Part shown: positions 5,344 to 43,666 of the stretch, piece after piece
Position numbering within the stretch: the first letter of the stretch is position 1
How the letters are laid out: the number at the start of each line of letters is the position of its first letter
Origin: Candidatus Omnitrophota bacterium
GTDB lineage: Bacteria; Omnitrophota; Gorgyraeia; Gorgyraeales; Gorgyraeaceae
NCBI GenBank assembly: GCA_003485765.1
Contig: DNHS01000056.1
Location: forward strand, 8,064-72,063
DNA length: 64,000 bases
Reading direction: 5' to 3'
The notes under the pieces: model-generated
Told to the model about the DNA's origin: nothing
The model's input: only the letters and a program-made list of their open reading frames with translations
The model's database searches: none
Translations under genes and position numbers: made by a program

Positions 5344-7181
5344 ACTTGCGCAGGAAAAACTATCTTTTTTACCTCTTCCGAATCCAATACCTCTTTTTCA
5401 AGCAATGTTTCAGCAAGGGCTTTTAATTTTTCAACATTAGCTGTTAATTCATCTTTTGCCCGCTTATAGCACTCTTCTATGATTTTGCGTATCTCTTTAT
5501 CTATTTCCACAGCTGTTGCTTCGCTGTAATTTCTTTCTTCCACAATATCGCGGCCAAGAAATATCTGATCTTCTCTCCTCCCAAAAGTAAGATTTCCAAG
5601 TTTCTCGCTCATGCCCCATCTCATTACCATATCCCTGGCAATATCAGTAGATTTTTCTAAATCGTCTTGAGCGCCCGTTGAAAGCTCCCCGAACACAAGA
5701 TCCTCGCTGGCCCTGCCGCCCAATATGCCAACTATCCTTCCTATCAGTTCTTTTTTAGTCACGATGTATCTATCTTCCAAAGGCAGCCTCATCGTGTAAC
5801 CAAGCGCAATGCCCCTTGGTATAATAGAAACTTTATGCAAAGGGTCAGCTCCTGGTATCAGAAGCGCTAAAAGCGCATGGCCTGATTCATGATACGAAAC
5901 TATTTTTTTCTCCTCTAGGTTTATAACTCTTGTCTTTTTTTCAGGCCCTGCAATAACTCTTTCAATAGACTCTCCTAATTCTTTCATCTCCACATTCTCT
6001 TTATTTCTCCTCGCAGCCAAAAGAGCAGCCTCGTTCACAAGATTAGCAAGGTCTGCCCCTGAAAAACCAGATGTCTGCCTTGCAATGTATTTAAGGTCAG
6101 CGTCTTTGTTGAGCTTAATGCCTTTTGTGTGAACTTTCAATATCGCTTCTCTGCCTATGATATCAGGCCTGGAGATAACTATTGTTCTGTCAAATCTCCC
6201 TGGCCTTAACAATGCCGGGTCCAGAACATCAGGCCTGTTGGTAGCTGCTATCAGTATAACGCCTTCCTGTGTATCGAATCCATCCATCTCTACAAGAAGC
6301 GCGTTCAAAGTCTGTTCCCGTTCGTCGTGGCCACCGCCTATTCCTGCGAACCTCTGCCTTCCTACTGCATCTATTTCATCAATAAAAATAATGCATCCTC
6401 TGCCGCTTATCTTTGCAGAGCGTTTGGCTTGCTCAAAAAGATCTCTTACTCTGGAGGCGCCTACGCCCACAAACATCTCTACGAAATCAGAACCGCTTAT
6501 GTTGAAAAATGGCACACCTGCTTCGCCGCTCACTGCCTTTGCTAGAAGGGTTTTTCCCGTGCCAGGGGGCCCCATCAATAAAACGCCTTTAGGAATCTTG
6601 CCGCCTAATTTCTGGAACCTCTTAGGATCTTTTAAAAATTCTATAATCTCCTTCAATTCTTCTTTTGCTTCGTCAACCCCGGCAACATTATCAAATGTTA
6701 TTTTTAATTTATCGCCTGCTATTTGTTTTGCGCGACTTTTCCCAAACGAAAGTATTTTGCCTCCTCCCTGCGCACCTCTATATACAAAAAACCACAGGAA
6801 TCCTATGAATAAAAGCATTGGCCCAAGTGAATAAAAAAGATTTGTCCACAACGTCTTTGGAGGTTTAACATCAAAATCAGGCACATTGTTACGTAATAAA
6901 TTTAAAAGCTCAGGATCTTCCTGGGGTATATGCACTGTAAAACGCGCTCCGCTGGAAAACGTGCCTTTGAGCTCATCCTCCATTTTTACAACAGACTTAA
7001 TGGCCACTGTTTGTTTATTGCCTTGTAATAGCCTGTAAAATTCACCGTAACTCAGCTCTTTTGGAAGCGAAGCTTGGGAGAAAGAATCCATCCTGAATAT
7101 ATATATAAGAAGCAAAAACAGCCCTACCCATAATAAAATATTCTTATTAACTTTATTCCCGCCTTTATTTTCCATTTTCAT
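5340..7181 (-). CDS. ftsH: ATP-dependent zinc metalloprotease FtsH
   Basis: 613 aa. N-terminal TM region, AAA Walker [14 protein letters not shown], second region of homology, HEAGH zinc motif (HESGHAL). Confidence 0.95.
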
Positions 7182-9193: not shown

Positions 9194-9218
9194 ATCGCCA
9201 TCCTTTTATCCCCCCCCC

Positions 9219-9252
9219 ATGTTACAAAACGAGTATGACTTGTTTTGTAACA
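9219..9252. repeat. 35-bp palindromic intergenic element, copy 2
   Basis: ATGTTACAAAACgagtatgacttGTTTTGTAACA, between larE-like and mnmA. Confidence 0.8.
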
Positions 9253-9268
9253 GGCACGAATTGTAAAG

Positions 9269-10426
9269 TTACGATAATATTTTGTCGATCCAGCCGCCGC
9301 CTGAGACATATTCTCCATCATAAAAAACAGCTGCTTGTCCTGGCGTTATTGCGCTTTGTGGCTCTTTAAAATCTACTTCTGCAATATTGCCGCCTAAATC
9401 CTTTACGTAAGCCCAAGCCTTTTTATGATTATATCTTATCTTCACCTCTAAATCTTTTTCTTTTTCAGTATCCTTTGCCAGCCAGTTGATTTTCTTCACC
9501 AGAAATCTTTTTTTCTTAACATCTTCCGCGGCTCCGACAACAATAATATTATGCTTAGGCCTTATTTCTGTAACATAAAGAGGTTCTTTGGCGGCTATGC
9601 CAAGCCCTCTGCGCTGGCCTATTGTAAAATTCCAGAAACCCATATGATTTCCAAGCGCCTTGCCAGATCTATCTATTATATTGCCTTTCTGAGGCTTTAT
9701 ATTTCTATACTTTTTTATAAAATCAGAATAATTATTATCAGGAACAAAACATATCTCCTGACTATCAGGCTTATCGTATATGTTAAGCTCTAATTCCTTT
9801 GCTTTACGCCTGATATCATCCTTTGTAAAATTTCCTATCGGAAATAGTATTTTTTTCAACTGGCTTTGTTTCAGGCAAAATAAAACATAAGATTGGTCTT
9901 TTGCTTTATCAACAGATTCTCTCAGCCCATAAGAACCATTTATACATTCGCCCGCCACAGAAACCAATGGCGGGCTCAGTATTCCGCCCAAGGAACCCCG
10001 GGCATTAGCCCGGGTGGGCTCCATTTCTATCCTGGCATAATGTCCTGTTGCAATAAAATTACAGCCTAGGCCAATTGCTTTTTTAAGCAGACTGCCGAAC
10101 TTTATTTTTTCGTTGCAAACAATACATGGATTAGGGGTTTTGCCTGCTAAATATTCTTTTACAAAATAGTCTATTACATTCTTTTGGAAGTCCGCTTCAA
10201 GATTTAAAACATAATGTTTTATGCCGAGGACTCTTGAAACCTTTCTTGCGTCTTCTATATCTTTTAATGAGCAGCACGCCTTTTCTTTTTCCTTGCCGCA
10301 TAACTCCTTCGGCCAAACCTTCATGGTGGCGCCTATGACTTCATATCCAGCTTCATTCAGAATAGCTGCTGCCACAGAGCTGTCCACCCCGCCACTCATC
10401 GCAACTAGTACTCGCTTATTCTTCAT
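9269..10426 (-). CDS. mnmA: tRNA-specific 2-thiouridylase
   Basis: 385 aa. VLVAMSGGVDSSVAA PP-loop, catalytic Cys residues, C-terminal beta-barrel region. Confidence 0.9.
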   Translation of the reverse strand: MKNKRVLVAMSGGVDSSVAAAILNEAGYEVIGATMKVWPKELCGKEKEKACCSLKDIEDARKVSRVLGIKHYVLNLEADFQKNVIDYFVKEYLAGKTPNPCIVCNEKIKFGSLLKKAIGLGCNFIATGHYARIEMEPTRANARGSLGGILSPPLVSVAGECINGSYGLRESVDKAKDQSYVLFCLKQSQLKKILFPIGNFTKDDIRRKAKELELNIYDKPDSQEICFVPDNNYSDFIKKYRNIKPQKGNIIDRSGKALGNHMGFWNFTIGQRRGLGIAAKEPLYVTEIRPKHNIIVVGAAEDVKKKRFLVKKINWLAKDTEKEKDLEVKIRYNHKKAWAYVKDLGGNIAEVDFKEPQSAITPGQAAVFYDGEYVSGGGWIDKILS

Positions 10427-11159: not shown

Positions 11160-12122
11160 CTACCTCAGCATTGTCACATCGCCAGCAAGAACCCTTTCAT
11201 TGAGCCCTGAATCCATTCTTAATACAAGAGCGCCGTCCTTGTCAACATCTATAGCATAGCCTTCAATCTTTGTCTCGTGATATGTCACCTGAACCCTTGT
11301 GCCCAGAAAGTTTGAAAATTCTTTATATTCTCTTATAATCTCGCCTATATGGCCGCTATTAAAAAGCCTGTAATATTTGTCCATATTTTTAAAAATACTT
11401 CTTACTATTTCAACTCTGGATAACTCTCTGCCAAACTCTTCTGCAATAGAAGTTGCGCCTTTCGGCAAAAGCTCTTTTTTTGTATTTATATTAATCCCTA
11501 TGCCTATTATAACAAAATTAATCTTGTCTGTCTCCGCATTCATTTCAGTCAATACGCCGCATATCTTTTGCCTATCTATCAAAACATCGTTTGGCCATTT
11601 TATAAACGCGGCCAAATTTGTCATTTCTCTGATTGTCTTTGCGACGCTCAGAGCTGAAAAAAGCGTAATGCTGGACACCTCTTTTGGCAATATATCTGGC
11701 CTCAATATAATAGACATATATGCGCCTTTGGATTTAGGAGAAACCCAAATTCTACCCATCCTTCCTCTGCCAGCAGTCTGCGATTCTGCTATAACAATAG
11801 ACCCCTCTTTTTCTCCGGCCATGGCAAGATCATGCGCCGCATCATTGGTAGAGGCTATTTCTTTGTAAGAATAAATCTTTTTGGCTATGATATCTGTTTT
11901 AAGATGCCACTTTAGCTCCACCTCTGTTAAGCAGTCTGGTATAGAGATCAGCTTGTAGCCCAGATGCGGGAATGCCTCGATATCATAACCTTCTTCTCTT
12001 AGATTTTCTATGTGTTTCCACACTGCCGCACGGGAAATTCCAAGTTCATGACTCATATCTTCGCCTGAAATATACCCTTCTTCGTGTCTCTTAAAATAAT
12101 TTAATATTTTATCATCCAGCAT
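11160..12122 (-). CDS. birA: Bifunctional biotin-[acetyl-CoA-carboxylase] ligase / biotin operon repressor
   Basis: 320 aa. N-terminal wHTH ([26 protein letters not shown]), GRGRMGRIW biotin-binding loop, C-terminal domain. Confidence 0.85.
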
Positions 12123-14082
12123 TATTTTTTAATTCCTTTATTCTATCTCTCAATTTCGCTGCGCGTTCAAACTGTAAATTCCTAGCCAAAAGCTCCATCT
12201 CTCTTTCAAACTCAGCAATTACCATTTCTTTTTCATAATCTTCTTCACTCTGGCCAGTTGCTTCAATAACAATCTCTTCTGCTTTTTTAAGAGATTCTAT
12301 GCCGTTTCTAATAGCCTTTTCAATAGAGCGGGGCGTAATATTATTTGCCTTATTAAACTCTGCCTGTTTCTTCCTTCTCCTGTTTGTTTCCTCGATAGCC
12401 TTTCTCATTGAACTTGTTATATTGTCTGCATACATTATAACATGGCCGTCTATATTCCTGGCTGCCCTTCCTGCCACCTGAATCAAAGATGTCTCTGATC
12501 TCAGGAAACCTTCTTTATCTGCATCCAAAATAGCTACCAGAGCTACCTCTGGCAAATCCAGGCCTTCTCTCAATAGGTTTATCCCTACCAGGCAGTCAAA
12601 TTTCTGCATCCTTAAATCCCTTAATATCTCCGAGCGCTCAATAGTATCTAACTCTGAATGTATATACCTTGCTTTCAGGCCTAACTCTTTCAAATACCCG
12701 GCAAGGTCTTCGGACATCCTTTTTGTTAAAGTAGTGACAAACACTCTCTGGTTTTTAGACGCTCTTTGTTTTATGTTTTCAACAAGGTCCTGTATCTGAT
12801 TCTCAGTTGGTTTCACAGTTATTTCCGGGTCCAATAACCCTGTAGGCCTTATGACCTGTTCCGCTATCCGGCCTGAATTTTGCAGCTCGTATTCCGAAGG
12901 CGTAGCTGAAACAAATACTGTTTCATGAACAATGCCCATAAATTCTTCAAAGCTTAAAGGCCTGTTATCCAAAGCTGACGGAAGCCTGAATCCATAATCA
13001 ACAAGCGTCTGCTTGCGGGCTCTGTCTCCATTGTACATGCCTCTCAGCTGCGGCATTGTGACATGCGATTCATCAATTATTGTCAAAAAATTTTCCGGGA
13101 AATAATCCAGAAGGCAGCTTGGCCTTGAGCCAGCAAGCCTTTGGCTCAAATGCCTTGAATAATTTTCTATGCCGTTACAAAATCCCATTTCCTGAAGCAT
13201 CTCAATATCATAACGCGTCCTGGACCCTAACCTCTGTGCCTCCAATAATTTATTCTGCGCCCTTAATTCCTTAAGCCTTTCTTCAAGCTCTACCTCTATT
13301 GACCTGATAGCTGAGTCTATTCTTTCCTGCGTAGTGACAAAATGTTTGGCTGGATATATAGCTATCTTTTCAATAAAATCCGCGAGCGTGCTGCCGCTAA
13401 CAGGATCTAATTCTGAAATCTTCTCTATCTCATCTCCAAACAAACTTATCCTGAAAAATGTTTCTTTATACGCGGGGAATATATCTATAGTATCGCCTCT
13501 TACCCTAAAACAGCCTCTCTTGAAATCAACATCGTTTCTGGTGTAATGTATGTTTACAAGGCGGGATAATAAAGCGCTTCTTTTTATCGCCTCTTTCTTC
13601 TTTAAAAATAATAATAAATCTTTATAATCTTCTGGCGAACCCAGGCCGTAAATGCACGACACGCTTGCTACTATAATAACATCGCTCCTAGACATAAGAG
13701 AACTAGTAGCAGAAAGCCTGAGCCTGTCTATATTATCATTTATAGAAGCGTCTTTTTCTATATAGATATCTGCCTGCGGCACATATGCCTCTGGCTGGTA
13801 ATAATCGTAATAGCTTACAAAATATTCAACTGCATTATACGGAAAGAATTCTTTGAATTCACTGTATAACTGCGCAGCGAGAGTTTTATTATGCGATACC
13901 ACAAGCGTAGGCCTTTGGACATTACTGACCACATTAGCCATAGTAAATGTTTTACCGCTGCCAGTAACGCCAAAAAGCGTTTGATACTTCAAATTTTTTT
14001 GCAGCCCATCAGTAAGCTTATCAATAGCCTGCTGCTGATCCCCGCAAGGCTTAAATGGAGCGACTAATTGAAATTTTGGCAT
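12112..14082 (-). CDS. uvrB: Excinuclease ABC subunit B
   Basis: 656 aa. [12 protein letters not shown] Walker A, helicase motifs, C-terminal UvrB/UvrC interaction coiled coil. Confidence 0.95.
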
Positions 14083-14933
14083 ATTTCCAACGAAAAATCT
14101 ATTGAAGGAGCCGAGTGGGTGAGTTTGCCTATTGAAATTCTGTCAACTCCTGTTTTAGCAATCTTTCTTACATTCTCCAAGCTGACTCCGCCAGAAGCTT
14201 CCAAAATTACCTGTCTAAAACGGCCTTTGTCTTTAGTATCTTTAAGCTTCACGGCTTTCTTAATCTCCTCGGCTTTCATATTATCCAACATAATTATATC
14301 TGCCTCTGCTTCCAGCGCCTCTTTAAACTCTGCAATATCATCTACCTCAACCTCTATATTTTTATATCCCCTGCTTTTGAATATAGAAACTGATTTTTTT
14401 ATAGCATCTTCTCTTAATGCCCCTAAATGATTATCCTTTATCATTACCTCGTCCCATAAACCAATCCTGAAATTAAACCCTCCTCCAGCAACAACAGCAT
14501 ATTTTTCCATTTCTCTTAACCCAGGGGTTGTCTTTCTGGTATCATATATTCTGGCGCCCGTACCCTTTACTTCTTTCACAAATTCAGCAGTAAGCGTTGC
14601 TACGCCGGAAAGATGCCCCAGAAAATTCAAAACAGTCCTTTCAGCTGACAAAATATTTTTTGCAGAGCCTCTTACTGATATGATCCTTTTGTTTTTCTTA
14701 ACCCTGTCACCATCTTTATACAACGCTGTAAATGCTATCTTTTCATCAACTGCATCAAAAACCCATTTTACGACATCCGCGCCAGCTAAAATACATTCCT
14801 CTTTTACTATAATATGCGCTAATAGACTGACGGGTTTTTCAAAAATAACAGAACTTGTAATATCGCCAGAGCCGATATCTTCTTTTAAAGCGCTTATAAT
14901 TATTGGAAATACCTTTTCTTTTGTAAGTTTCAT
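14064..14933 (-). CDS. nadC: Nicotinate-nucleotide pyrophosphorylase [carboxylating]
   Basis: 289 aa with QPRTase N- and C-domain motifs ([12 protein letters not shown]..., MLDNM). Confidence 0.85.
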
Positions 14934-14957
14934 CTTATTTAACTATTAACTCTGCCC

Positions 14958-15247
14958 GTGCCAGCAGTTTGCGAGGACGCAAAATTTTCCCAGCGTGAAA
15001 ATTTTGCTCCGTTTTGACCCTCGCTCGTCTGTTGAGCCAGGTGGGGTCTGAGGCACATTAGAATCGTTTCGGCAAAAGTCCGCAAGGATTTATGGTGAGT
15101 TCTGTTCAGTTGACAATACGATAGTCGACAGAAGAACGAACCATAAACCGTAGCGGACGGCGAAACGATTCAGTGCCGAATGGCCCCACCTGGCTCAACA
15201 GACACCGTGCCCGCTCGTGTCAAAGAGGCCTCTCAAACTGCTGGCAC
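14958..15247. repeat. Composite structured repeat, copy 1: module A (14958-15029 plus 15201-15247) with module B (15030-15200) nested inside it
   Basis: Terminal inverted repeat CCAGCAGTTTGCGAGG / CCTCTCAAACTGCTGG. The 57-nt core GAGGACGCAAAATTTTCCCAGCGTGAAAATTTTGCTCCGTTTTGACCCTCGCTCGTC is identical to the one at 20830-20886. The inner module has TIR TGTTGAGCCAGGTGGGGTC / GGCCCCACCTGGCTCAACA. Lies in the valS-nadC intergenic region, the nadC leader. Confidence 0.75.
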
Positions 15248-15261
15248 AGGCAGAAAGCCAA

Positions 15262-17904: not shown

Positions 17905-19476
17905 TTATCTGGCCTTGTCTTTTAATAGCTTGTATTCCACGCTATCCACAAGAGCCTGCCAGCTTGCTTCTATGATGTTTTCAGAAACTCCGACAGTGCC
18001 CCATGAGCTATTTTCGTCCTCTGACTGGATAAGGACCCTTACTTTAGCAGCAGTGCCTGCTTTTTCATCCAGCACCCTTACCTTGAAATCAGACAGATGC
18101 ATCTTTGAAAGTGTGGGGTAAAATTTTGTCAAAGCTTTGCGCAATGCATTATCCAAAGCGTTTACAGGCCCATCTCCTATTGCCGCAGTATGCTCTTCTT
18201 TTTTATTCACATTCAGCTTAATAATAGCCTCTGAAATCAGCATATCGTCTTCTCTTTTCTCAATACTAACCCTGAATCCTTCCAACGTAAAAAACGGTTT
18301 ATATCTTTTCAATTCCTTTTTCACCAATAGTTCAAAAGACCCATCAGCAGCTTCAAAATGATACCCCTGATTTTCCATAGATTGGATCAACCTCAATATC
18401 CTTTTTGTCTTGGGATCATCCTTTGTAAGGTCAAATTCCATCTCTTTTGCTTTTAGAATAATGCTGGTCTTGCCTGACAATTCAGAAACAAGGATCCTCC
18501 TATGATTTCCCACCTTTTCAGGTATTACATGTTCGTAAGACGCAGGGTTCTTCATAACTGCGTTAATATGAACTCCGCCTTTATGCGCAAAAGCGCTCCT
18601 TCCAACAAAAGGCTGGTTATCCTGAGGCCTCATATTTGAAATCTCGTTTATATACCTAGATACCTCTGTCAGCTCTTTCAGCTTAGATTCAGAACAACAT
18701 TTATACCCCATCTTCAATTGAAGATTCGGGATAATGCCGCACAAATCTCCATTACCGCATCTTTCGCCATATCCATTTATCGTGCCCTGCGCAATACTTG
18801 CGCCTGCCTCAACCGCAGCTAAAGTATTCGCAACAGCCAGGCCGCCATCATTATGAGTGTGAATCCCCAGTATAACATTAGAACACTCGCTGGAAATCGC
18901 CCTGACAATAGTCCCTAATTCATGAGTAAGCATGCCGCCGTTTGTATCGCATAAAACAACCGCATCGCATCCCGCGTTTACAGCTGAATGCAGGGTCTCC
19001 AAGGCATAATTTTTATTCCGCATATATCCGTCAAAAAAATGTTCTGCATCATAAAATACATAAAGATTCATGGATTTAAGAAATTCTACGGTGTCTTTGA
19101 TCATCCTCAAATTTTCCTGTAGAGACACCTTGAGAATATCTGTCACATGCATATCCCATGTCTTGCCAAAAATAGCAGCTAGCCTTACGCCTGATTTTAT
19201 AAGAGCCTTTAGGTTTTCATCTTCTGTTGGATTGATCTTTGGGCGCCTTGTGCTGCCGAACGCAACAAGCTCAGAATTCTTGAATTTAATTTTTCTGGCC
19301 TGCTTGAAAAATTCCATATCCTTTGGATTTGAGCCCGGCCATCCGCCTTCTATATAATGAACTCCAAACTTGTCTAATTTCTTTGCAATCTTAACCTTAT
19401 CCATCACAGAAAAAGAAATACCCTCTCCTTGTGAACCATCTCTCAATGTAGTATCGTAAATCTTGATTTCCTTCAT
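17905..19476 (-). CDS. cimA: (R)-citramalate synthase / 2-isopropylmalate synthase family (LeuA-related, CimA-like)
   Basis: 523 aa. N-terminus KIYDTTLRDGSQGEGISFS...IEGGWPGSNPKD is characteristic of the CimA subfamily. Has the C-terminal LeuA dimerisation/regulatory domain. Confidence 0.65.
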   Translation of the reverse strand: MKEIKIYDTTLRDGSQGEGISFSVMDKVKIAKKLDKFGVHYIEGGWPGSNPKDMEFFKQARKIKFKNSELVAFGSTRRPKINPTEDENLKALIKSGVRLAAIFGKTWDMHVTDILKVSLQENLRMIKDTVEFLKSMNLYVFYDAEHFFDGYMRNKNYALETLHSAVNAGCDAVVLCDTNGGMLTHELGTIVRAISSECSNVILGIHTHNDGGLAVANTLAAVEAGASIAQGTINGYGERCGNGDLCGIIPNLQLKMGYKCCSESKLKELTEVSRYINEISNMRPQDNQPFVGRSAFAHKGGVHINAVMKNPASYEHVIPEKVGNHRRILVSELSGKTSIILKAKEMEFDLTKDDPKTKRILRLIQSMENQGYHFEAADGSFELLVKKELKRYKPFFTLEGFRVSIEKREDDMLISEAIIKLNVNKKEEHTAAIGDGPVNALDNALRKALTKFYPTLSKMHLSDFKVRVLDEKAGTAAKVRVLIQSEDENSSWGTVGVSENIIEASWQALVDSVEYKLLKDKAR

Positions 19477-19479
19477 ATT

Positions 19480-20700
19480 TTACCTCTTTAATCCAAATGC
19501 TTTATGCAGCGCCCGCACTGCATCGTCTGCGTATTTCTTATTTATCACGCACGATATCTTGATTTCAGAAGTTGATATCATGTCTATATTGATCTTTTTT
19601 GAAGCCAGGGCGCCAAACATCTTTGCCGCAACTCCTGAATGGGTCTTCATACCTACGCCAACTATTGAAACCTTCGCAATCTCATTATTATAAACCACAC
19701 CCTTTGCTTTCACAGCCTTCACTATTCTAGCCACCACATCTTTTGTCTTATTGAGCTCAGCCGTAGGCACTGTAAATGACAAATCTGTATAACCACGCCT
19801 ACTTATGTTCTGAATTATCATGTCGACATTTATATCGTGTTTAGCTAGGCTTGCGAATATTTTCGCTGCTATACCCGGCCTGTCAGGCACATCACAGATA
19901 GTTACTTTTGCCTCGCCTTTATTCGCAGTTACACCGCTAACAAGAACCTCTTCCATTGACTTAACCTCCTTTGAAATAATTGTTCCTTCTTTATCTGTAA
20001 AGCTTGATCTTATATGCAAAGGAACTGAATATTTTTTTGCAACCTCTATAGACCTTGCCTGCATTACCTGCGCGCCCAGAGAAGCCAGTTCTAGCATTTC
20101 TTCATAGCTGATCACGGAAAGTTTTCTGGCGTCTTTTACAACCCTAGGGTCAGCAGTATAAACACCTTCCACGTCAGTATATATCTCGCACATATCAGCA
20201 TCCAGGGTCTTTGCGATAGCAACAGCTGTAAGGTCTGACCCGCCCCTGCCAAGCGTTGTAATCTCTTGTTCGGCATTCATGCCCTGAAAACCAGCTACTA
20301 TAACAACCTTCCCTTTTTTAACCTGTTCCCTGATCCTGTCTGCGCTTATTTTAAGAATCTTGGCCTTTGTGTGAGAACAGTCTGTAACAATGCCTACTTG
20401 CGGGCCTGTAAAAGATATAGCATCAATACCTATCTTATGAAGAGCCATTGCCAGAAGCGCCACAGATACCTGCTCGCCTGTAGATATAAGCATATCCAGC
20501 TCTCTATCGCTTGGCCTATCCGTAATCTGGCCTGCCAGTTCCAAAAGCTCGTCAGTAGTATCTCCTAAAGCAGAAACCACCACTACTATCTTATGGCCTT
20601 GTTTCTTATAACGCGCAATGCGGTTTGCTACATTCTTTATCCTGCCTGTATCCGCTACAGAGCTACCGCCGTATTTTTGAACAATCAAAGACTTTCCCAT
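19480..20700 (-). CDS. lysC: Aspartate kinase
   Basis: Motif (M)GKSLIVQKYGGSSV...VVVVSALGDTTDEL, two C-terminal ACT domains. The ORF track extends to 20775, but the 25-aa N-terminal extension is probably not translated. ATG chosen at 20700. Confidence 0.85.
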   Translation of the reverse strand: MGKSLIVQKYGGSSVADTGRIKNVANRIARYKKQGHKIVVVVSALGDTTDELLELAGQITDRPSDRELDMLISTGEQVSVALLAMALHKIGIDAISFTGPQVGIVTDCSHTKAKILKISADRIREQVKKGKVVIVAGFQGMNAEQEITTLGRGGSDLTAVAIAKTLDADMCEIYTDVEGVYTADPRVVKDARKLSVISYEEMLELASLGAQVMQARSIEVAKKYSVPLHIRSSFTDKEGTIISKEVKSMEEVLVSGVTANKGEAKVTICDVPDRPGIAAKIFASLAKHDINVDMIIQNISRRGYTDLSFTVPTAELNKTKDVVARIVKAVKAKGVVYNNEIAKVSIVGVGMKTHSGVAAKMFGALASKKINIDMISTSEIKISCVINKKYADDAVRALHKAFGLKR

Positions 20701-20806
20701 ATCGATAAATATTACCACAAATGCTAAAAATAATCTATTAAAATATTTCCGTTCACTGAGCCAAGATAGGGTCATTCAACATTGAATCGTTTCAGTAATT
20801 CGCTAA

Positions 20807-20959
20807 TGCTGCTAAGGCTACTGGGTTTCGAGGACGCAAAATTTTCCCAGCGTGAAAATTTTGCTCCGTTTTGACCCTCGCTCGTCCCAACGCTATTCGC
20901 GTCGGGACACCAGCCCGCTCGGGTCAAAGAGGCCTCTCAACCCAGTAGCCTTAGCAGCA
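20807..20959. repeat. Structured repeat module A, copy 2 (stand-alone, about 153 nt)
   Basis: TIR TGCTGCTAAGGCTACTGGG / CCCAGTAGCCTTAGCAGCA. Shares the 57-nt core with copy 1. A small hairpin (CCCAACGC-tattc-GCGTCGGG) sits where copy 1 carries module B. Confidence 0.75.
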
Positions 20960-20986
20960 AAAATACTATCACAATATTTTAGTCAT

Positions 20987-21177
20987 TTGCTGAGCCAGGC
21001 TGGGGCCTGAGGCACATTTGAAAGGTTTTGGCACCATGTTTATTTTACTTTTAGTGCGCAAGGATTTACAGCGAGTTTCGATCAAGTGACAATACGATAG
21101 TCGACAAAGAAACGAGCTGTAAACCGTAGCGCACCCAAAAGCATTTCTGTGCCGCAGACCCCAGACTGGCTCAGCAA
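20987..21177. repeat. Structured repeat module B, copy 2 (stand-alone, about 191 nt)
   Basis: TIR TTGCTGAGCCAGGCTGGGGCCTGAGGCAC / GTGCCGCAGACCCCAGACTGGCTCAGCAA. Conserved apex GTGACAATACGATAGTCGACA. The internal stem shows compensatory substitutions relative to copy 1. Lies in the long lysC leader. Confidence 0.75.
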
Positions 21178-21192
21178 AACGAAACAAATGAT

Positions 21193-22401
21193 TTACCTGA
21201 TAAAAAATTCCATCAGCTCATGGCCTTTATCTATGCGGAATTTGGAAAGGCGGGCTTCTTTCTCGTTAAAATGCTTAATAGTCCCCTGCTCTATATCTGT
21301 GCCATACATGGCAAAACAAACATAATCCCTGGAATGGGTCTTTAATGCAATAGGTGTAGCATGGTCGTACAAAACCAGTATTCTGAATTCTTCATCACCA
21401 GACTTAAAATGGTTTAATACAGTGCCTACTACAAACTTGTCAAATTTCTCTATGCTGTAGATTTTTTCTCTCAAATCTCCATTGTGCCCTGCCTCATCAG
21501 GGGCTTCCACGTGAACAAATACAAAATCCTTATGCCTTAGCGAATCAATAGCATACTCTGCCTTGCCCAGATAGTTGGTGTCATAATATCCTGTAGCCCC
21601 AGGCACATTAATAACGTCAAGCCCTATAATCTTGCCTATGCCTTTTATAAGATCAACCGCTGATATAATAGAACCCTCTACATGATAAAGCTTTGAAAAT
21701 TTTGGCATAAAAGGTTTTATGCCCTGGCCCCACAGCCATATCATATTTGCAGGATTCTCTTTCAGGTCAAGCCTCACCCTGTTCACTTCATGTTCAGACA
21801 AGATCTTTCTGGATTCATCCATTAATCTTTTTAATATTTCTGCCTGAGGCGTCATTGCAGGTAGAAATCTATAAATTGTCTTCCCTGATATATCATGGGG
21901 CGGCATACATTTTGTTTTTACAAAGTTTTCCTGTTCTCCTTTATCTTTACATTTAAATACTACAAGATGCCTGTAACTTATGCCTGGGTAAAATTTAATA
22001 TCTTCTGTCCCTAATTTAGAATTTAATTCTTCTATAAGAGATTTTGCCTCTTCGTTTGATATATGGCCTGCGCTGTAATCCGCCATTTTATCGTCTGAAA
22101 TAGTTACCAGGTTACACCTGAAAGCAACTTCATTATCCTGTAAATCTATGCCCATATTTACCGCTTCTAACGGGCCGCGGCCAGTATAATATTTTTTTGG
22201 ATTATACCCAAGTATAGAAAGGTTTGCCACATCGCTTGCAGGCAGCATCCTGGCAGGTATCATATTGGTAAGGCCGACCTTGCCTTTTTCAGCTATAAAA
22301 TTCATATTAGGAATTTTGGCTGCCTCAAGAACAGTCTTTCCGCCAAGATCCTCAATAGGCCTGTCGCCCATTCCATCGCCAACCAGGACAATATATTTCA
22401 T
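21193..22401 (-). CDS. apgM: Cofactor-independent phosphoglycerate mutase, archaeal ApgM family (possible non-orthologous homoserine kinase)
   Basis: 402 aa. N-terminus YIVLVGDGMGDRP...NM is a metalloenzyme-superfamily motif. Sits next to lysC; ApgM homologues in thr-type contexts have been proposed as homoserine kinases. Confidence 0.6.
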   Translation of the reverse strand: MKYIVLVGDGMGDRPIEDLGGKTVLEAAKIPNMNFIAEKGKVGLTNMIPARMLPASDVANLSILGYNPKKYYTGRGPLEAVNMGIDLQDNEVAFRCNLVTISDDKMADYSAGHISNEEAKSLIEELNSKLGTEDIKFYPGISYRHLVVFKCKDKGEQENFVKTKCMPPHDISGKTIYRFLPAMTPQAEILKRLMDESRKILSEHEVNRVRLDLKENPANMIWLWGQGIKPFMPKFSKLYHVEGSIISAVDLIKGIGKIIGLDVINVPGATGYYDTNYLGKAEYAIDSLRHKDFVFVHVEAPDEAGHNGDLREKIYSIEKFDKFVVGTVLNHFKSGDEEFRILVLYDHATPIALKTHSRDYVCFAMYGTDIEQGTIKHFNEKEARLSKFRIDKGHELMEFFIR

Positions 22402-22783: not shown

Positions 22784-23437
22784 CTATGCGGAAATGGAAG
22801 ATTCAGCGCGCCTGACTTCTTCTATAAAGCGCTCCATTAATTCGGCATTCTTATTGCCTGGGCTGGATTCAATACCTGAGGAGACATCTACGCCATAAGG
22901 CTTAACTTCTTTTATTATTTTATAAACATTATCAGGGTTTAAGCCGCCTGATATAATAATATTTTTTCCATATTCTTTTGCAATGACAACAAGTGAATGG
23001 TCAAAATCTTCACCTGTGCCGCCATATAACCCTCTTTTATAAGCATCAAGTAAAATCGCATCTGCAGGGCAATCTTCTATAGCTTCCAAACTTTCCCTAT
23101 CCTTGATCCTTATAGCTTTTATAAGTTTCACTCCTTTTAACTTTAAACTTTTAAACTTTAAACAATATTTCACATCTTCATCGCCATGCAGCTGGACAGC
23201 GTTCAAATTACACCTTTCAACGCATTCTTCAATAAATTCGAGATCCTCATTAACAAAAACTCCCACTGCGCTTATAAAAGGCGGGATATCTTTTACTATC
23301 CTCTCAGCCTTTTCCAATGCGACAAAACGAGAGCTATCTTTAAAAAATACAACCCCTATTGCGTCAGCGCCTGCTGCTATTGCGCTATCCCTGTCTTCAA
23401 CTGATATTATTCCGCAAAACTTAACCCTTACTCTCAT
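22784..23437 (-). CDS. trpF: N-(5'-phosphoribosyl)anthranilate isomerase
   Basis: 217 aa. VKFCGI...VQLHGDE...GGTG...SGGL PRAI motifs. Contains an in-frame tandem-heptamer segment at about 23141-23170. Confidence 0.85.
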   Translation of the reverse strand: MRVRVKFCGIISVEDRDSAIAAGADAIGVVFFKDSSRFVALEKAERIVKDIPPFISAVGVFVNEDLEFIEECVERCNLNAVQLHGDEDVKYCLKFKSLKLKGVKLIKAIRIKDRESLEAIEDCPADAILLDAYKRGLYGGTGEDFDHSLVVIAKEYGKNIIISGGLNPDNVYKIIKEVKPYGVDVSSGIESSPGNKNAELMERFIEEVRRAESSISA

Positions 23438-24243
23438 TGCATGATCTCCTTTATCTTCCCTGCAATATCATCTGCTCCCAAAAACGCTCCACCTATTAGA
23501 ACAGCATTCACTCCAGCCTTCCTGAGCTTTCCAATATCTTCATTGGTGGATATCCCGCTTTCACTAATTGTTATAATTTCTTTAGGGATTTTAGGAATAA
23601 GTCTGTAAGCGGTATCCATCGATATTATGAATGTCTCCAGATCCCTATTATTAACCCCTATTATATCTGCTCCGCTCAACAAGGCCTTTTCAAGATCAAA
23701 TTCATCGTGAATCTCAATAATGGCATCCATGTTAATCTTTTTCGCAAGATGCATAAAACTCTTTATCTGGTCCACTGATAAAATCCTAGCAATTAATAGT
23801 ATTGCGTCTGCTCCGAAATAACGGGACTCGTAAACCTGATATTCGTCTATTATAAAATCTTTTCTCAGGACAGGCATATCTACGGCGCGCTTTACTTCAT
23901 TTATATGCAGGATATTCCCGCTAAAAAACTTTTTATCTGTGAGGACTGATATAGCTTTAGCTCCTTCTGCCTTATATATATTTGCTATGGTGGTTATATC
24001 TAATTTTCTGAAAAAATTTCTTTTAAAAGACGGAGATTTCTTTTTTATCTCTGCAATAAGGTTCAGCTCTTCCCCGCTGGAGATAGCTTTTTTAAATGGC
24101 CGTATGCCTCTTAATAGGCGTTTTGAATCAACAAACTCTGTTATAGCCCTTTTGGATTTCAGCGCATCGACTTCTTTTCTTTTTAATATAATTATATCCT
24201 GCAAAAAATTTTTCATATTATGCGCTACTAGTTTACAAAACAA
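23434..24243 (-). CDS. trpC: Indole-3-glycerol phosphate synthase
   Basis: 269 aa with IGPS motifs (IAEIKKKSPS, VLRKDFIID, GVNNRDLETF). The real start is possibly the internal Met at 24216. Confidence 0.85.
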   Translation of the reverse strand: MFCKLVAHNMKNFLQDIIILKRKEVDALKSKRAITEFVDSKRLLRGIRPFKKAISSGEELNLIAEIKKKSPSFKRNFFRKLDITTIANIYKAEGAKAISVLTDKKFFSGNILHINEVKRAVDMPVLRKDFIIDEYQVYESRYFGADAILLIARILSVDQIKSFMHLAKKINMDAIIEIHDEFDLEKALLSGADIIGVNNRDLETFIISMDTAYRLIPKIPKEIITISESGISTNEDIGKLRKAGVNAVLIGGAFLGADDIAGKIKEIMQ

Positions 24244-24263
24244 GTCATACTCGTTTTGTAAAC
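24231..24263. repeat. 35-bp palindromic intergenic element, copy 3 (opposite loop orientation)
   Basis: GTTTACAAAACaagtcatactcGTTTTGTAAAC at the trpD stop / trpC start junction. Confidence 0.75.
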
Positions 24264-28478: not shown

Positions 28479-28517
28479 TTGGCAGACTAAAGTCTGCCCT
28501 ACAATTTTATAGCAAAG
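28479..28517 (-). promoter_or_regulatory. Conserved hairpin motif (AAAATTGTAG-GGCAGAC-ttta-GTCTGCC-AA, minus strand) 8 nt upstream of the hisF ATG
   Basis: Perfect 7-bp stem with a 4-nt loop. Near-identical motif at 39717-39755, where the stem carries a compensatory C<->G swap. Confidence 0.55.
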
Positions 28518-28532
28518 ATCTTTACTTTCATA

Positions 28533-29258
28533 TTATTTCGCGATTTGTATGGCTTCCTGTAAATCAATCTTGCTTTCATATATCGCCTTGCCGATAACAA
28601 CGCCTTCTAAATTCTTATTTTCAATTTCTTTCAATTTTTTTATATCTTTCAGGGAAGAAATACCGCCGGAAGCTATGACAGAGATATCTACGGTATTAAG
28701 GATTTGTTTCAATCTCTCTATTCTTGGACCTTTTAATGTCCCATCTACGCTTATGTCAGTCAATATTATAGTCTTAACTCCTATTTTTTGCATCTCCTGA
28801 ACCATAAATATTGGGTCCAGGCCTGTTTTTTCCTTCCAGCCGTGTTTCACAACCTCGTCTCTATGAAAATCCACACCCACAGCTATCTTTTCTCTAAATT
28901 CTTTTATCAGTTCTTCTAAAAACCTTGGATCTTCAAAAGCCTTAGTGCCTAATATCACGCGTCTTGCGCCGCTATTTAAAAAATACTCTATATCGCTTTT
29001 ATCCCTGATGCCCCCGCCTACTTCGCATGGCGTTTTTATATTTTTTATAATCTCCGCTATTATATCTTGGTTTTTTATCTTTCCTTCTCTTGCGCCGTCC
29101 AAATCAACTATATGCAGTAATTCCGCTCCTTTTTTCTCCAAATATTTTGCCATCTCAAGAGGGTTGTTTGAATAAATCCTCTTCTTATTAAAATTGCCTT
29201 TTACAAGCCTAACTACCTTTCCACCAATTATATCTATAGCTGGAATAATTAACATCAT
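28533..29258 (-). CDS. hisA: 1-(5-phosphoribosyl)-5-[(5-phosphoribosylamino)methylideneamino]imidazole-4-carboxamide isomerase
   Basis: 241 aa. IIPAIDI..GKVVRL... and GGGIR HisA motifs. Confidence 0.9.
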   Translation of the reverse strand: MMLIIPAIDIIGGKVVRLVKGNFNKKRIYSNNPLEMAKYLEKKGAELLHIVDLDGAREGKIKNQDIIAEIIKNIKTPCEVGGGIRDKSDIEYFLNSGARRVILGTKAFEDPRFLEELIKEFREKIAVGVDFHRDEVVKHGWKEKTGLDPIFMVQEMQKIGVKTIILTDISVDGTLKGPRIERLKQILNTVDISVIASGGISSLKDIKKLKEIENKNLEGVVIGKAIYESKIDLQEAIQIAK

Positions 29259-29293: not shown

Positions 29294-29974
29294 TTAAGCA
29301 ATTATGTTAACAAAGTTCTCTATAATTTTTAACCCCATAGATTGGCTTTTTTCAGGATGAAATTGAAATCCATATACATTGTCTTTACGCACTCCTGAAG
29401 CAAAATCCCATCCATAATCTGTCTCGCATAAAATAACATTTTTATCTTTCGGCACCGCATAATACGAATGCACAAAATACATATAACTCCCGTCTTCCAC
29501 CCCATCTATAACTTTTAACTTTGAACTTTTAAACTTTAAACTAATTCTATTCCACCCCATATGTGGTATCTTTAATCCATCTCTTTCCTTAAACCTTCTA
29601 ACCTTGCCTTTTATAATATCCAGGCCTTTTATACATTCGCCCAAGGAACCCCGGGCTTTAGCCCTGGTGGGCTCCGCTTTCCCGCCTTCCTCGCTTTCAG
29701 TAAATAAAAGCTGCAATCCTAGGCATATTCCTAAAAAAGGTCTGCCTTTTTCTATAGAGTCCTTGATCGGCTCTATTAAATCTCTTTTTTTTAATTCTTC
29801 CATTGCGACCTTAAAAGCTCCTACACCAGGCAGAATTATTTTATCAGCCTTAAGGATATCTTTTGCAGACGAACTCACAATAACATTTGAACAGAATTTC
29901 TCAAACGCCTTCTGAACGCTCCTCAAATTCCCCATCCCGTAATCAATAATAACTATCATTTTACATTCCAACAA
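29294..29974 (-). CDS. hisH: Imidazole glycerol phosphate synthase glutamine amidotransferase subunit
   Basis: GATase triad (GICLGLQ, HMGWN, FHPEKS). Start probably at MIVIIDYG (29959). Contains an in-frame tandem-heptamer segment at about 29506-29540. Confidence 0.85.
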   Translation of the reverse strand: MLECKMIVIIDYGMGNLRSVQKAFEKFCSNVIVSSSAKDILKADKIILPGVGAFKVAMEELKKRDLIEPIKDSIEKGRPFLGICLGLQLLFTESEEGGKAEPTRAKARGSLGECIKGLDIIKGKVRRFKERDGLKIPHMGWNRISLKFKSSKLKVIDGVEDGSYMYFVHSYYAVPKDKNVILCETDYGWDFASGVRKDNVYGFQFHPEKSQSMGLKIIENFVNIIA

Positions 29975-39716: not shown

Positions 39717-39755
39717 TTGGCACACTAAAGTGTGCCCTACAATTTTGTCGCAAAG
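39717..39755 (-). promoter_or_regulatory. Conserved hairpin motif (AAAATTGTAG-GGCACAC-ttta-GTGTGCC-AA), second copy
   Basis: Same flanks as the 28479-28517 motif. The stem sequence differs by a compensatory G/C exchange that preserves pairing. Confidence 0.55.
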
Positions 39756-39759
39756 GCCT

Positions 39760-40581
39760 TTAATTCTTTATTCCATCTTTCGTAATTATAATTTCTTTTT
39801 TTTCGCCTTTTTTCCCGGAAAAACTTGCGGGTTTTCCGTTTACACTTATCTTAATAACTCCGGAATTGCCTGCTTCCAATTTTATTTCTTTTTTTGCCTT
39901 CCACGTATCCGAACTACCTTTTCTAAATGTCCCCGTAAACATAAGCACTCCGTCGCCTATTATCCGGAGCCATGTATTATCCGAAGTAGAAACTTCTATC
40001 TCAATTTCATCTGTTTTTACAGCTGCAGCTTCTTCTTTTTTCTCTTTTAAAGGTTTTCGTTCAGAGAGTTGGTGGGTTGCTTGCTCCGTACCCTTGCGCG
40101 CGCTTTTAACTATCTTATTTTGCTTCTTTACAGATATATTTTTAATAAATTTAGTAACATGGCTAATAGCTGACGATAACACCCAGAATACAAATACTCC
40201 TATAATTATAGCTATTATCTGGTTCTTATATTTAATTATGCATGAAAAACCTAACTGCGGCATTTCTTTTGCAGGCAAAGATTTTTGTTGTGCGGTTCCA
40301 GAAATAGGCACGGCTACTGGCTTTAAAATCGTTGGCGGCTGGCCGGATTTAGCAAGATATTCTTTTATACCAGGCTCATCCAATGCCCCTAAAAAAACAG
40401 CGTATGTTTTTACAAAGCTCTTTGCATAAAAAACTGACCTTATTTCATTCAGCCTGTCTTCTTCCAGGGTAGAAATTATATGCTTAGGTATGCGGCTTCT
40501 CTCGGATACTTCTTCTATGGAAAGATGCTTGGATTCCCTTGTTCTTTTTAATATTTTACCTAATGACTCTGGCAGATGCAT
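39760..40581 (-). CDS. rodZ: RodZ-like cytoskeleton protein (N-terminal XRE-type HTH, TM helix, C-terminal DUF4115-like domain)
   Basis: 273 aa. HTH (LGKILKRTRESKHLSIEEVSERSRIPKHIISTLEE), one TM segment, C-terminal beta-rich domain. Confidence 0.6.
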   Translation of the reverse strand: MHLPESLGKILKRTRESKHLSIEEVSERSRIPKHIISTLEEDRLNEIRSVFYAKSFVKTYAVFLGALDEPGIKEYLAKSGQPPTILKPVAVPISGTAQQKSLPAKEMPQLGFSCIIKYKNQIIAIIIGVFVFWVLSSAISHVTKFIKNISVKKQNKIVKSARKGTEQATHQLSERKPLKEKKEEAAAVKTDEIEIEVSTSDNTWLRIIGDGVLMFTGTFRKGSSDTWKAKKEIKLEAGNSGVIKISVNGKPASFSGKKGEKKEIIITKDGIKN

Positions 40582-42870: not shown

Positions 42871-43650
42871 CTATGGTTTTAAAATTAAAACAACCGCTAT
42901 TCCCAGCAGAATACAATATATCCCAAACCAATGAAACTTATTTCTATAAAGCACTTTTAATAATACTTTTAATGATACAACCCCTACAATACAAGATATA
43001 AAAAGTCCGATAAAATAATTTATATTTACGCCTGTAAGATTAAACCCTGTTTCCTTGATTTTAAATAAGAACGCCCCTAGTATTGCCGGGATAGATAATA
43101 AAAACGAGAATTTTGCAGCAGTCTGTCCATCAAGCCCTAAAAATAACCCTGTGGAAATCGTGGCGCCGCTCCTGGATATGCCAGGTAAAGCTGCTATACC
43201 CTGAGCTAGTCCAATCAAACCTGCTTTAAAAACTGTCATACCCTCTGTTCCAAGTCTTATGAAATTAGCAGCAATAAGCCATATGCCTGTCAGTATAAGC
43301 ATAATACCGACTGTTCTTACATTACTAAATGCAGCCTCTATGTTTTTAATAAAGAACAAAACAAAAACAAATGTTACTAAGCTGCTTGCTAAAATTAATG
43401 CGCCTATTCTTTTTTTAGTAGTTACACTTTCTATTATATCTCTGCCGAATACTATAAATACGGCTACTAAGGTTCCAAGATGCAAAAATAAATCGAAAAG
43501 AATTTCAGGCTCATTAAGGCCCATTAATTTATGCAAAATAACCAAATGGCCTGAGCTTGAAATAGGTAAAAACTCTGCCACGCCCTGCACGATCCCTGAA
43601 ATTATAGCCTGAAATAACCCCATAACCCCGTATGTTACAAAACAAGTCAT
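42871..43650 (-). CDS. uppP: Undecaprenyl-diphosphatase
   Basis: BacA family, EFLPISSSGH motif. The real start is probably the internal Met at 43623, which would leave the palindromic repeat fully intergenic. Confidence 0.85.
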   Translation of the reverse strand: MTCFVTYGVMGLFQAIISGIVQGVAEFLPISSSGHLVILHKLMGLNEPEILFDLFLHLGTLVAVFIVFGRDIIESVTTKKRIGALILASSLVTFVFVLFFIKNIEAAFSNVRTVGIMLILTGIWLIAANFIRLGTEGMTVFKAGLIGLAQGIAALPGISRSGATISTGLFLGLDGQTAAKFSFLLSIPAILGAFLFKIKETGFNLTGVNINYFIGLFISCIVGVVSLKVLLKVLYRNKFHWFGIYCILLGIAVVLILKP

Positions 43651-43666
43651 ACTCGTTTTGTAACAT
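43632..43666. repeat. 35-bp palindromic intergenic element, copy 4
   Basis: ATGTTACAAAACaagtcatactcGTTTTGTAACAT between pnp and uppP. Confidence 0.8.

Follow-up and report, generated by a model that had tools for sequence, protein, structure and literature searches.

Bacterial structured interspersed repeats include ERIC/IRU, the Correia elements of Neisseria, bcr1 of Bacillus cereus and the RPE of Rickettsia (PMC3184786). They are non-coding, multi-copy, intergenic sequences of 100-200 nt that form long hairpins; their insertions are polymorphic among strains, and they are found between genes that are transcribed together. In all these respects they resemble the element analyzed here, which we call module B. 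However, they are restricted to a genus or a family and have defined terminal inverted repeats, often with a TA duplication, whereas B has variable ends with no detectable duplication. B also differs from them in keeping its internal-loop sequences across a whole phylum and in nesting modularly, in both orientations, within a second element, module A. The REP/REPIN sequences are mobilised by RAYT transposases, the GTAG- and CGTC-tagged REP superfamilies included, and the REP unit has 20-40 bp, with a GTAG or CGTC tag that is left unpaired at the foot of the stem (PMC3733652). Like B, these sequences are extragenic palindromes whose stems carry alternative residues that remain complementary; a HUH enzyme, present in a single copy and acting in trans, recognises them in the form of folded DNA, and they have been reported in the PVC superphylum. 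A GTAG is conserved in B and a CGTC in A, each of them adjoining a hairpin, but the GTAG of B lies in an internal loop midway along the ~90-bp stem of a ~190-nt hairpin and not at the foot of a stem, and, since its arms contain no sub-palindromes, B does not qualify as a REP doublet. The 8-kb stretches around the sampled B copies showed no RAYT gene.

The attC sites of integrons, which act as folded single-stranded DNA, share with B the preservation of structure over stem sequence, the extrahelical bases, the asymmetric loops and a variable terminal structure. They have 57-141 nt and R/L boxes (RYYYAAC/GTTRRRY), and they are arranged in cassette arrays adjacent to an integrase, in a fixed orientation. 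In contrast, B occurs as single copies among housekeeping genes, in either orientation; the copies of the window (that is, the whole stretch of 64,000 nt that was analyzed) have no GTTRRRY ends, and the neighbours of B (valS, nadC, lysC, apgM, nuoL, and ruvB) do not form a cassette array with an integrase. The lysine riboswitch (L-box, RF00168) resembles one of the window copies, B2, only in its position upstream of an aspartate kinase gene; B does not match its model, is not conserved at the locus and has another architecture. The closest known kind to A and B is the structured interspersed repeats (ERIC, Correia, bcr1, RPE, and REP/REPIN). A and B behave like those repeats, yet they miss their definitions with regard to ends, duplication, unit size or tag, and cassette-array context. 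What is unusual in them is the phylum-wide conservation of the loops, the very long, strictly Watson-Crick-compensated stems and the modular nesting in both orientations. No account of module A or B was found in the literature searched by organism, keyword and literal sequence.

The cells of Candidatus Omnitrophota, a phylum without cultured members, are very small. The minus strand carries every gene in the part of the window that contains the elements, and trpF follows the apgM-type gene in the minus-strand gene list. The strand given for B is the one that reads GCAAGG...CCGTAGC. Genes and elements are the following:

12112-14082, minus strand: uvrB
14064-14933, minus strand: nadC
14951-15254, plus strand: module A copy 1 (A1; inverted repeat I10), with B1 in place of its P4 hairpin, filling the valS-nadC spacer
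15030-15200, plus strand: module B copy 1 (B1), between the GTC and the GAC that open and close P4 of A1; covariance-model score 136.8 bits
15262-17895, minus strand: valS
17905-19476, minus strand: citramalate/isopropylmalate synthase gene
19480-20703, minus strand: lysC (aspartate kinase; Pfam AA_kinase and ACT domains), a neighbour of the element and not a component of it
20704-20746, minus strand: conserved block of ~45 nt directly upstream of the lysC ATG (TTTTAATAGATTATTTTnnGCATTTGTGGTAATATTT), from the comparison of the window with L113, L114, L115, and L116
~20756-20805, minus strand: remnant of a third B element, 3' arm only, degenerate, abutting A2 (~75% identity to the B1 3' arm over the 49 columns of a local alignment)
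20807-20959, plus strand: module A copy 2 (A2), a three-way junction (inverted repeat I8; direct repeats D4 and D13; alignment with A1; family alignment)
20836-20864, plus strand: P2 hairpin of A2, GCAAAATTTTC-CCAGCGT-GAAAATTTTGC, whose loop is conserved in the family and whose stem covaries
20877-20921, plus strand: junction strands CTCGCTCGTC and ACACCAGCCCGCTCG of A2, flanking the P4 hairpin (20884-20908)
20986-21178, plus strand: module B copy 2 (B2), a rod-like imperfect hairpin of 193 nt (inverted repeat I6); covariance-model score 111.9 bits
21034-21052 (approximate), plus strand: extra segment of ~17 nt in B2, CCATGTTTATTTTACTT, at the GGCA^AAAGT bulge (alignment with B1)
21058-21130, plus strand: core of B2, GCAAGGATTTA ... 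TAAACCGTAGC
21193-22401, minus strand: apgM-type phosphoglycerate mutase gene, a neighbour of the element and not a component of it

The lysC protein is 100% identical to its counterpart in Omnitrophica bacterium GWA2_41_15. The apgM-lysC spacer has 489 nt (20704-21192) and contains three elements, i.e., A2, B2, and the degenerate 3' arm of a B on the opposite strand; the stop codon of apgM is 15 nt from the end of B2. The interval 20807-21177 given in the initial annotation also holds a different second element, A2, besides B2. The valS-nadC spacer has 328 nt and is filled by A1, whose short apical hairpin is replaced by the complete B1.

B2 folds as a 193-nt rod on both strands, with -91.5 and -96.7 kcal/mol and z values of -10.5 and -11.6 with respect to shuffled sequences. 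Its core comprises the conserved AA/GTA internal loop, a bulged A, an inner stem that contains a tandem G·A (CGAG/CGAG), and an apex that varies. The initial annotation had proposed that compensatory base changes distinguish the two copies, and the inner-stem strings that it quoted are indeed found in copy 1 (GTCCGCAAGGATTTATGGTGAG...GAACCATAAACCGTAGCGGAC; core 15082-15154) and in copy 2 (GTGCGCAAGGATTTACAGCGAG...GAGCTGTAAACCGTAGCGCAC; core 21058-21130). The three changes in one arm (ATGGT to ACAGC) that are matched in the other (ACCAT to GCTGT) are real, and so is the exchange of C-G for G-C in the basal helix. In fact, the compensation between B1 and B2 exceeds what had been reported, since in a model-based alignment at least eight pairs have changed on both sides and are still Watson-Crick, next to 30 unchanged pairs; at ~18% divergence, by our rough estimate, chance would yield well under one doubly changed Watson-Crick pair. 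The apex had also been described as conserved, and B1 and B2 match at 20 of its 21 positions, but it varies across the B family, so this conservation is local to the B1/B2 subfamily.

We have scanned a collection with one genome per species using the pattern GCAAGGATTTA-N40-65-TAAACCGTAGC, which yielded at least 112 B loci. All the named records belong to Candidatus Omnitrophota, and a few are labelled just "bacterium" or "uncultured Planctomycetales". Several genomes carry 8-13 copies, with up to 13 in a single assembly among the matches listed. The invariance at the 22 positions fixed in the search pattern is partly due to the way in which the copies were found; a covariance model added ~10 copies that do not have the exact pattern. 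The viral collection gave 0 matches, and no Rfam family matches B, either in the whole window or, at E<=10, at the two window loci. The element is one copy of a non-coding, hairpin-forming repeat family of ~170-200 nt that is specific to Omnitrophota.

The consensus of B, on the GCAAGG strand, is gcaC-AUUA-GaAAnnUUUyGGC-AAAa-GUnnGC-AA-GG-A-UUUAcnnc-GAG...apex...CGAG-nng-UAAA-CC-GUA-GCnnAC-GGCrAAAnnUUUC-A-GuGc, and this core is enclosed by a further outer stem of 15-30 bp that is different in each copy. The conserved asymmetric loops are AUUA opposite A, a G·G mismatch with an AAA bulge, AA opposite GUA with a bulged A, and the tandem G·A. The first three of these, the bulged A included, are kept in more than 90% of the copies from many genomes, and a GNRA-like CGUAAG is found at many apices. 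The GGCA^AAAGU bulge is a recurrent insertion point, which has received 17 nt in B2, a hairpin-rich insert of 74 nt in L075 (~2620-2700) and inserts of 15-25 nt in other copies (L008, L010, L012, L015, L018, L058, and L067). About 13-20% of the B copies are in an A-type context and the remainder are solitary.

The structure of B was obtained from a vote over single-sequence folds, and its 55 pairs were counted on an alignment of 110 copies whose model held 19 of them; this first covariance model (R1) caught only 19 pairs because MAFFT had misaligned the stems, and it was used for alignment alone. Standard pairs occupy 82.0% of the cells compared with 67.8% in shuffles, and 45 of the 55 pairs, compared with 36.5 in shuffles, have changed on both sides. 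Doubly changed cells number 1040 versus 444±17 in shuffles, a value that none of 500 shuffles reaches, and the covariation score is 0.354 versus 0.142 in shuffled alignments and at most 0.129 when the partners are slid. The helices adjoining the conserved loops are 94-99% paired and switch cleanly: one pair is CG in 54 copies and GC in 50, the adjacent one is CG (59 copies) or UA (43), and another is UA in 61 and CG in 36. The initial annotation had taken the covariation as a sign of selection on secondary structure and had named a larger alignment with no significant covariation as the result that would speak against it; the 110 copies uphold the covariation as a real constraint on secondary structure. 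The counts of G·U and A·C are 22/20, 10/8, 16/16, and 104/131 in the different helix groups, each kind being near 1% in the well-aligned helices. As G·U is no commoner than A·C, the pairing is strictly Watson-Crick and has no strand preference, and these counts show no asymmetry by which to assign the functional strand of B.

Module A is composed of an outer stem P1 (21-27 bp), a hairpin P2, a stem P3, and a short apical hairpin P4, and the site of P4 in A2 is the position where A1 carries the entire B1. A scan of metagenomes with the pattern CCCAGCGTG-N18-30-CTCGCTCGTC returned 120 loci (L121-L240), 57 of which were counted as true A elements because the unforced motif ACACCnTGCCCGCTCG is also present downstream; the other hits are chance matches in GC-rich coding DNA. 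The P2 loop CCCAGCGUG and the junction strands CUCGCUCGUC and ACACCnUGCCCGCUCG are conserved in the family. All six variable pairs of P2 covary, with four to six pair types each, P1, P3, and P4 covary as well, and wobble pairs are very rare. In most of the true A copies the P4 hairpin is short (10-30 nt), and AT-rich copies have B in its place. By our reading, one strand of A also contains five to eight occurrences of the pentamer GCTCG/CGCTC.

The contigs bearing A range from 34 to 71% GC and the orientation of A with respect to the genes is mixed. Clustering of the ORFs within 2.5 kb of the 57 loci did not reveal any recurring gene, and Rfam gave no match for the 12 A loci scanned. The wide GC range had suggested a distribution over many phyla. 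We have tempered this idea, since in one GC-rich contig all the named homologues of the neighbouring protein are from Candidatus Omnitrophica, and judging from this contig A is probably also specific to Omnitrophota. Within the assembly JAHJHC01, the B inside A is reversed in L005 and L017 with respect to L026, L046, L053, L072, and L102 (2 of ~9 composites), and the presence of both orientations in one assembly resembles a flip/flop inversion between long inverted arms. In L096 (~6003-6195), B sits immediately within a stem of the type that normally encloses A (GCACTACCCAGGCCAG...), the A core being absent; the modules can therefore be combined in different ways, or else the A core is subject to deletion.

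The comparison with relatives that have a matching gene cluster and gene order gave the following lysC identities and spacer lengths:

Window: lysC 100%; apgM-lysC spacer 489 nt; valS-nadC spacer 328 nt
L113: lysC 96% identical; apgM-lysC spacer 37 nt; valS-nadC spacer 328 nt (read in L030)
L115 / L117: lysC 92% identical; apgM-lysC spacer 70 nt; valS-nadC spacer 59 nt
L116 / L118: lysC 90% identical; apgM-lysC spacer 44 nt; valS-nadC spacer 1 nt

Neither A nor B is present in the apgM-lysC spacers of L113, L115, and L116, and A1 is absent from the valS-nadC spacers of L117 and L118. The ~490 nt upstream of lysC that had been described as an unusually long leader are correct as a length (489 nt), but "leader" is an interpretation and not an observation. 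Given the short spacers of relatives with identical gene order, the long "leader" is a pile-up of insertions, and B2, A2, and the reversed B remnant were inserted into an apgM-lysC spacer that otherwise has 37-70 nt. All the insertions of the window are located upstream of the ~45-nt block that adjoins the lysC ATG and is retained by every relative compared. This block holds TGTGGTAATAT ~10 nt before the ATG, which resembles an extended -10 box; on account of this motif lysC may possess its own promoter, and its leader may be very short or absent. Upstream of lysC in L120, a 95% relative, there are ~200 nt of different palindromic material. In L114 (MNVP01000041.1, CG1_02_40_15; positions 1-322), the contig begins upstream of lysC at AGCCGTATACTGGAAAACAGTCCGTACGGTT, which we take to resemble domain V of a group II intron, and this suggests that the spacer there contains an intron (apparent group II 3' end) or an assembly break.

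Other repeats are present in the window. A third family consists of near-perfect palindromes of 30-40 nt, (A)TGTTACAAAACGAGTATGGCTTGTTTTGTAACA(T), at 2796-2836, 9212-9252, 24223-24263, and 43625-43665, and the 92% relative has related palindromes, GTTTACAC...GTTTTGTAAAC, in the two spacers where the window has A and B (L117 ~11964-12000; L115 ~2431-2470). A 56-nt repeat has two copies (28479-28534 and 39717-39772) that start with a hairpin, GGCAGAC-TAAA-GTCTGCC in one and GGCACAC-TAAA-GTGTGCC in the other, and differ there by a compensated G-C to C-G change. A GC-rich repeat of 38 nt, CGCCCAAGGAACCCCGGGCATTAGCCCGGGTGGGCTCC, with a CCCGGGC...GCCCGGG hairpin, is found at 9985-10022 and 29638-29675 (95% identical), and a low-complexity repeat of 30 nt, CTTTTAACTTTAAACTTTTAAACTTTAAAC, at 23134-23163 and 29512-29541 (97% identical).

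B is multi-copy and insertion-polymorphic, the spacers that it fills in the window being empty sites in relatives. Between co-directional genes it is antisense in 55 cases and sense in 19 (heuristic ORF calls), which is a bias and not a rule. Clustering of the ORFs within 1.5 kb of the 112 loci revealed no recurring gene family and no transposase, and the top clusters correspond by Pfam to housekeeping genes, e.g., nuoL, ruvB, and leuB. No case of B arms split around a gene, as expected of an autonomous parent, was found in ~0.8 Mb of loci, and no conserved promoter was found inside the element. Copies with more than 90% identity in their cores have different outer stems, terminal inverted repeats are not conserved, and ends such as TTTTAGG..CCTAAAA are common only to some subfamilies. 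In the two subfamilies examined for target-site duplication, TAA or TTA is present on both sides of some copies, not of most, within A/T-rich flanks. Fixed termini could not be defined, and filled and empty sites are too diverged to place the junctions. With neither target-site duplication nor fixed ends, parent or transposase found, we infer the mobility of B only from its insertion polymorphism and copy number, and the elements may still move. With regard to A, we have rejected the idea that it was inserted into a pre-existing palindrome (P1), since the empty sites of L117 and L118 lack such a sequence and we did not find any "empty" P1 hairpin; the outer stem of A1, missing from the empty sites, thus arrived with the element.

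The reading that we consider probable is that B is a structure-dependent, non-autonomous DNA element that is read in folded form by a putative trans-acting protein. B would be propagated, or else maintained, as a folded single strand, most likely of DNA, and a protein encoded elsewhere in the genome would read its conserved asymmetric internal loops. The stems would need only to pair, so that copies with complementary stems persist and spread, and we propose this as the origin of the compensatory changes; quasi-palindrome template switching may add to the complementarity of the stems. The location of B2 upstream of lysC, in an unusually long spacer, and its high degree of structure could suggest instead a riboswitch of the lysine or aspartate pathway, or a cis-regulatory leader of another kind, but such a role is contradicted by the empty spacers of relatives whose lysC is 90-96% identical. 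Moreover, the other window copy, B1, sits between valS and nadC, more than 100 additional copies adjoin unrelated genes (the unrelated intergenic sites number at least 112, and B takes either orientation there with respect to the flanking genes), and B2 lies ~280 nt upstream of the conserved ATG-adjacent block with its GCAAGG-reading strand antisense to lysC. Rfam, L-box included, gave nothing at the gathering threshold in the window and nothing at E<=10 in 20690-21210; the initial annotation could not recognise an L-box or any other known riboswitch motif. A riboswitch can thus practically be discarded. As B was inserted upstream of lysC in this strain only, it is not a regulator of lysC.

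The initial annotation had also left the choice between a functional RNA and a structure-dependent mobile DNA, and of these two options the mobile DNA is favoured and a single-stranded RNA disfavoured. According to the RNA option, B and the A+B composite would be a dispersed functional RNA domain, i.e., a protein-binding, processing or stability element carried in operon transcripts, or a small RNA with a transcription of its own. The strong covariation could be ascribed to selection for RNA folding, single-stranded segments are conserved in the three-way junction of A, and the elements lie between co-directional genes, probably co-transcribed, with a 3:1 orientation bias that could reflect an effect at the RNA level. 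The conserved loops of B, purine-rich on one strand (tandem G·A in CGAG/CGAG, AA/GUA) and accompanied by the GNRA-like apices, resemble RNA motifs as well; sheared G·A pairs are also stable in DNA. However, G·U pairs are no commoner than A·C pairs, transcription from the flanking genes would yield the strand with pyrimidine-rich loops in three quarters of the cases, and the element has no conserved promoter and is dispensable in close relatives. The strict Watson-Crick pairing, together with the occurrence of B in either orientation inside A and with respect to genes, favours a repeat acting at the DNA level, and we regard the RNA option as possible but rather unlikely. A hammerhead-like reading of CUGAGG...CGAAU in B was rejected since the core does not fit and Rfam gives no match. 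What the DNA repeat does not predict is that outer stems differ strongly among nearly identical cores, as copy-and-paste followed by neutral decay would not generate this pattern. Outer stems that are nearly perfect yet highly variable among copies, and the absence of a G·U preference, would fit a purely mutational origin of the compensatory changes by template switching or arm-to-arm conversion in palindromes, with no selection on the fold. Quasi-palindrome template-switch mutagenesis is an established mechanism. Nevertheless, such a process would erase bulges and asymmetric loops, which are kept in more than 90% of the B copies, so selection on the folded architecture is required and a solely mutational origin is quite improbable. 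The folded form of the structure-dependent element would be DNA rather than RNA, and its loops would be read by a protein.

These results remove as a false lead, an insertion pile-up, what looked like a riboswitch candidate upstream of lysC. They also indicate that strong covariation alone is not sufficient to establish a functional RNA, and that orientation, empty sites and the balance between G·U and A·C are needed too. The A and B repeats should be masked in searches for new RNA motifs, and they probably break the metagenome assemblies of Omnitrophota. We suggest tentatively, and with some doubt, that A and B together constitute an undescribed, phylum-wide modular hairpin system, made up either of a new mobile DNA or of rod-like multi-domain RNAs. 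If the former were true, the elements would land in the apices and bulges of other hairpins, flip inside them and have their loops read by a phylum-specific enzyme; if the latter, A would be a three-way junction with repeated GCUCG and B a ~90-bp arm with four loops, forming a protein-binding scaffold. In either form, the system would represent a new class, beyond another MITE or REP family.

Omnitrophota thus possess two large families of highly structured intergenic elements that were found neither in Rfam nor in the literature searched. Their internal loops keep their sequence in contigs whose GC content ranges from 34 to 71%, while their stems turn over by strictly Watson-Crick-compensated changes, and this combination points to a phylum-specific protein that reads a folded nucleic acid. 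The A and B families provide a large natural data set in which to find this putative loop-reading protein and to study the nesting and inversion of hairpins.
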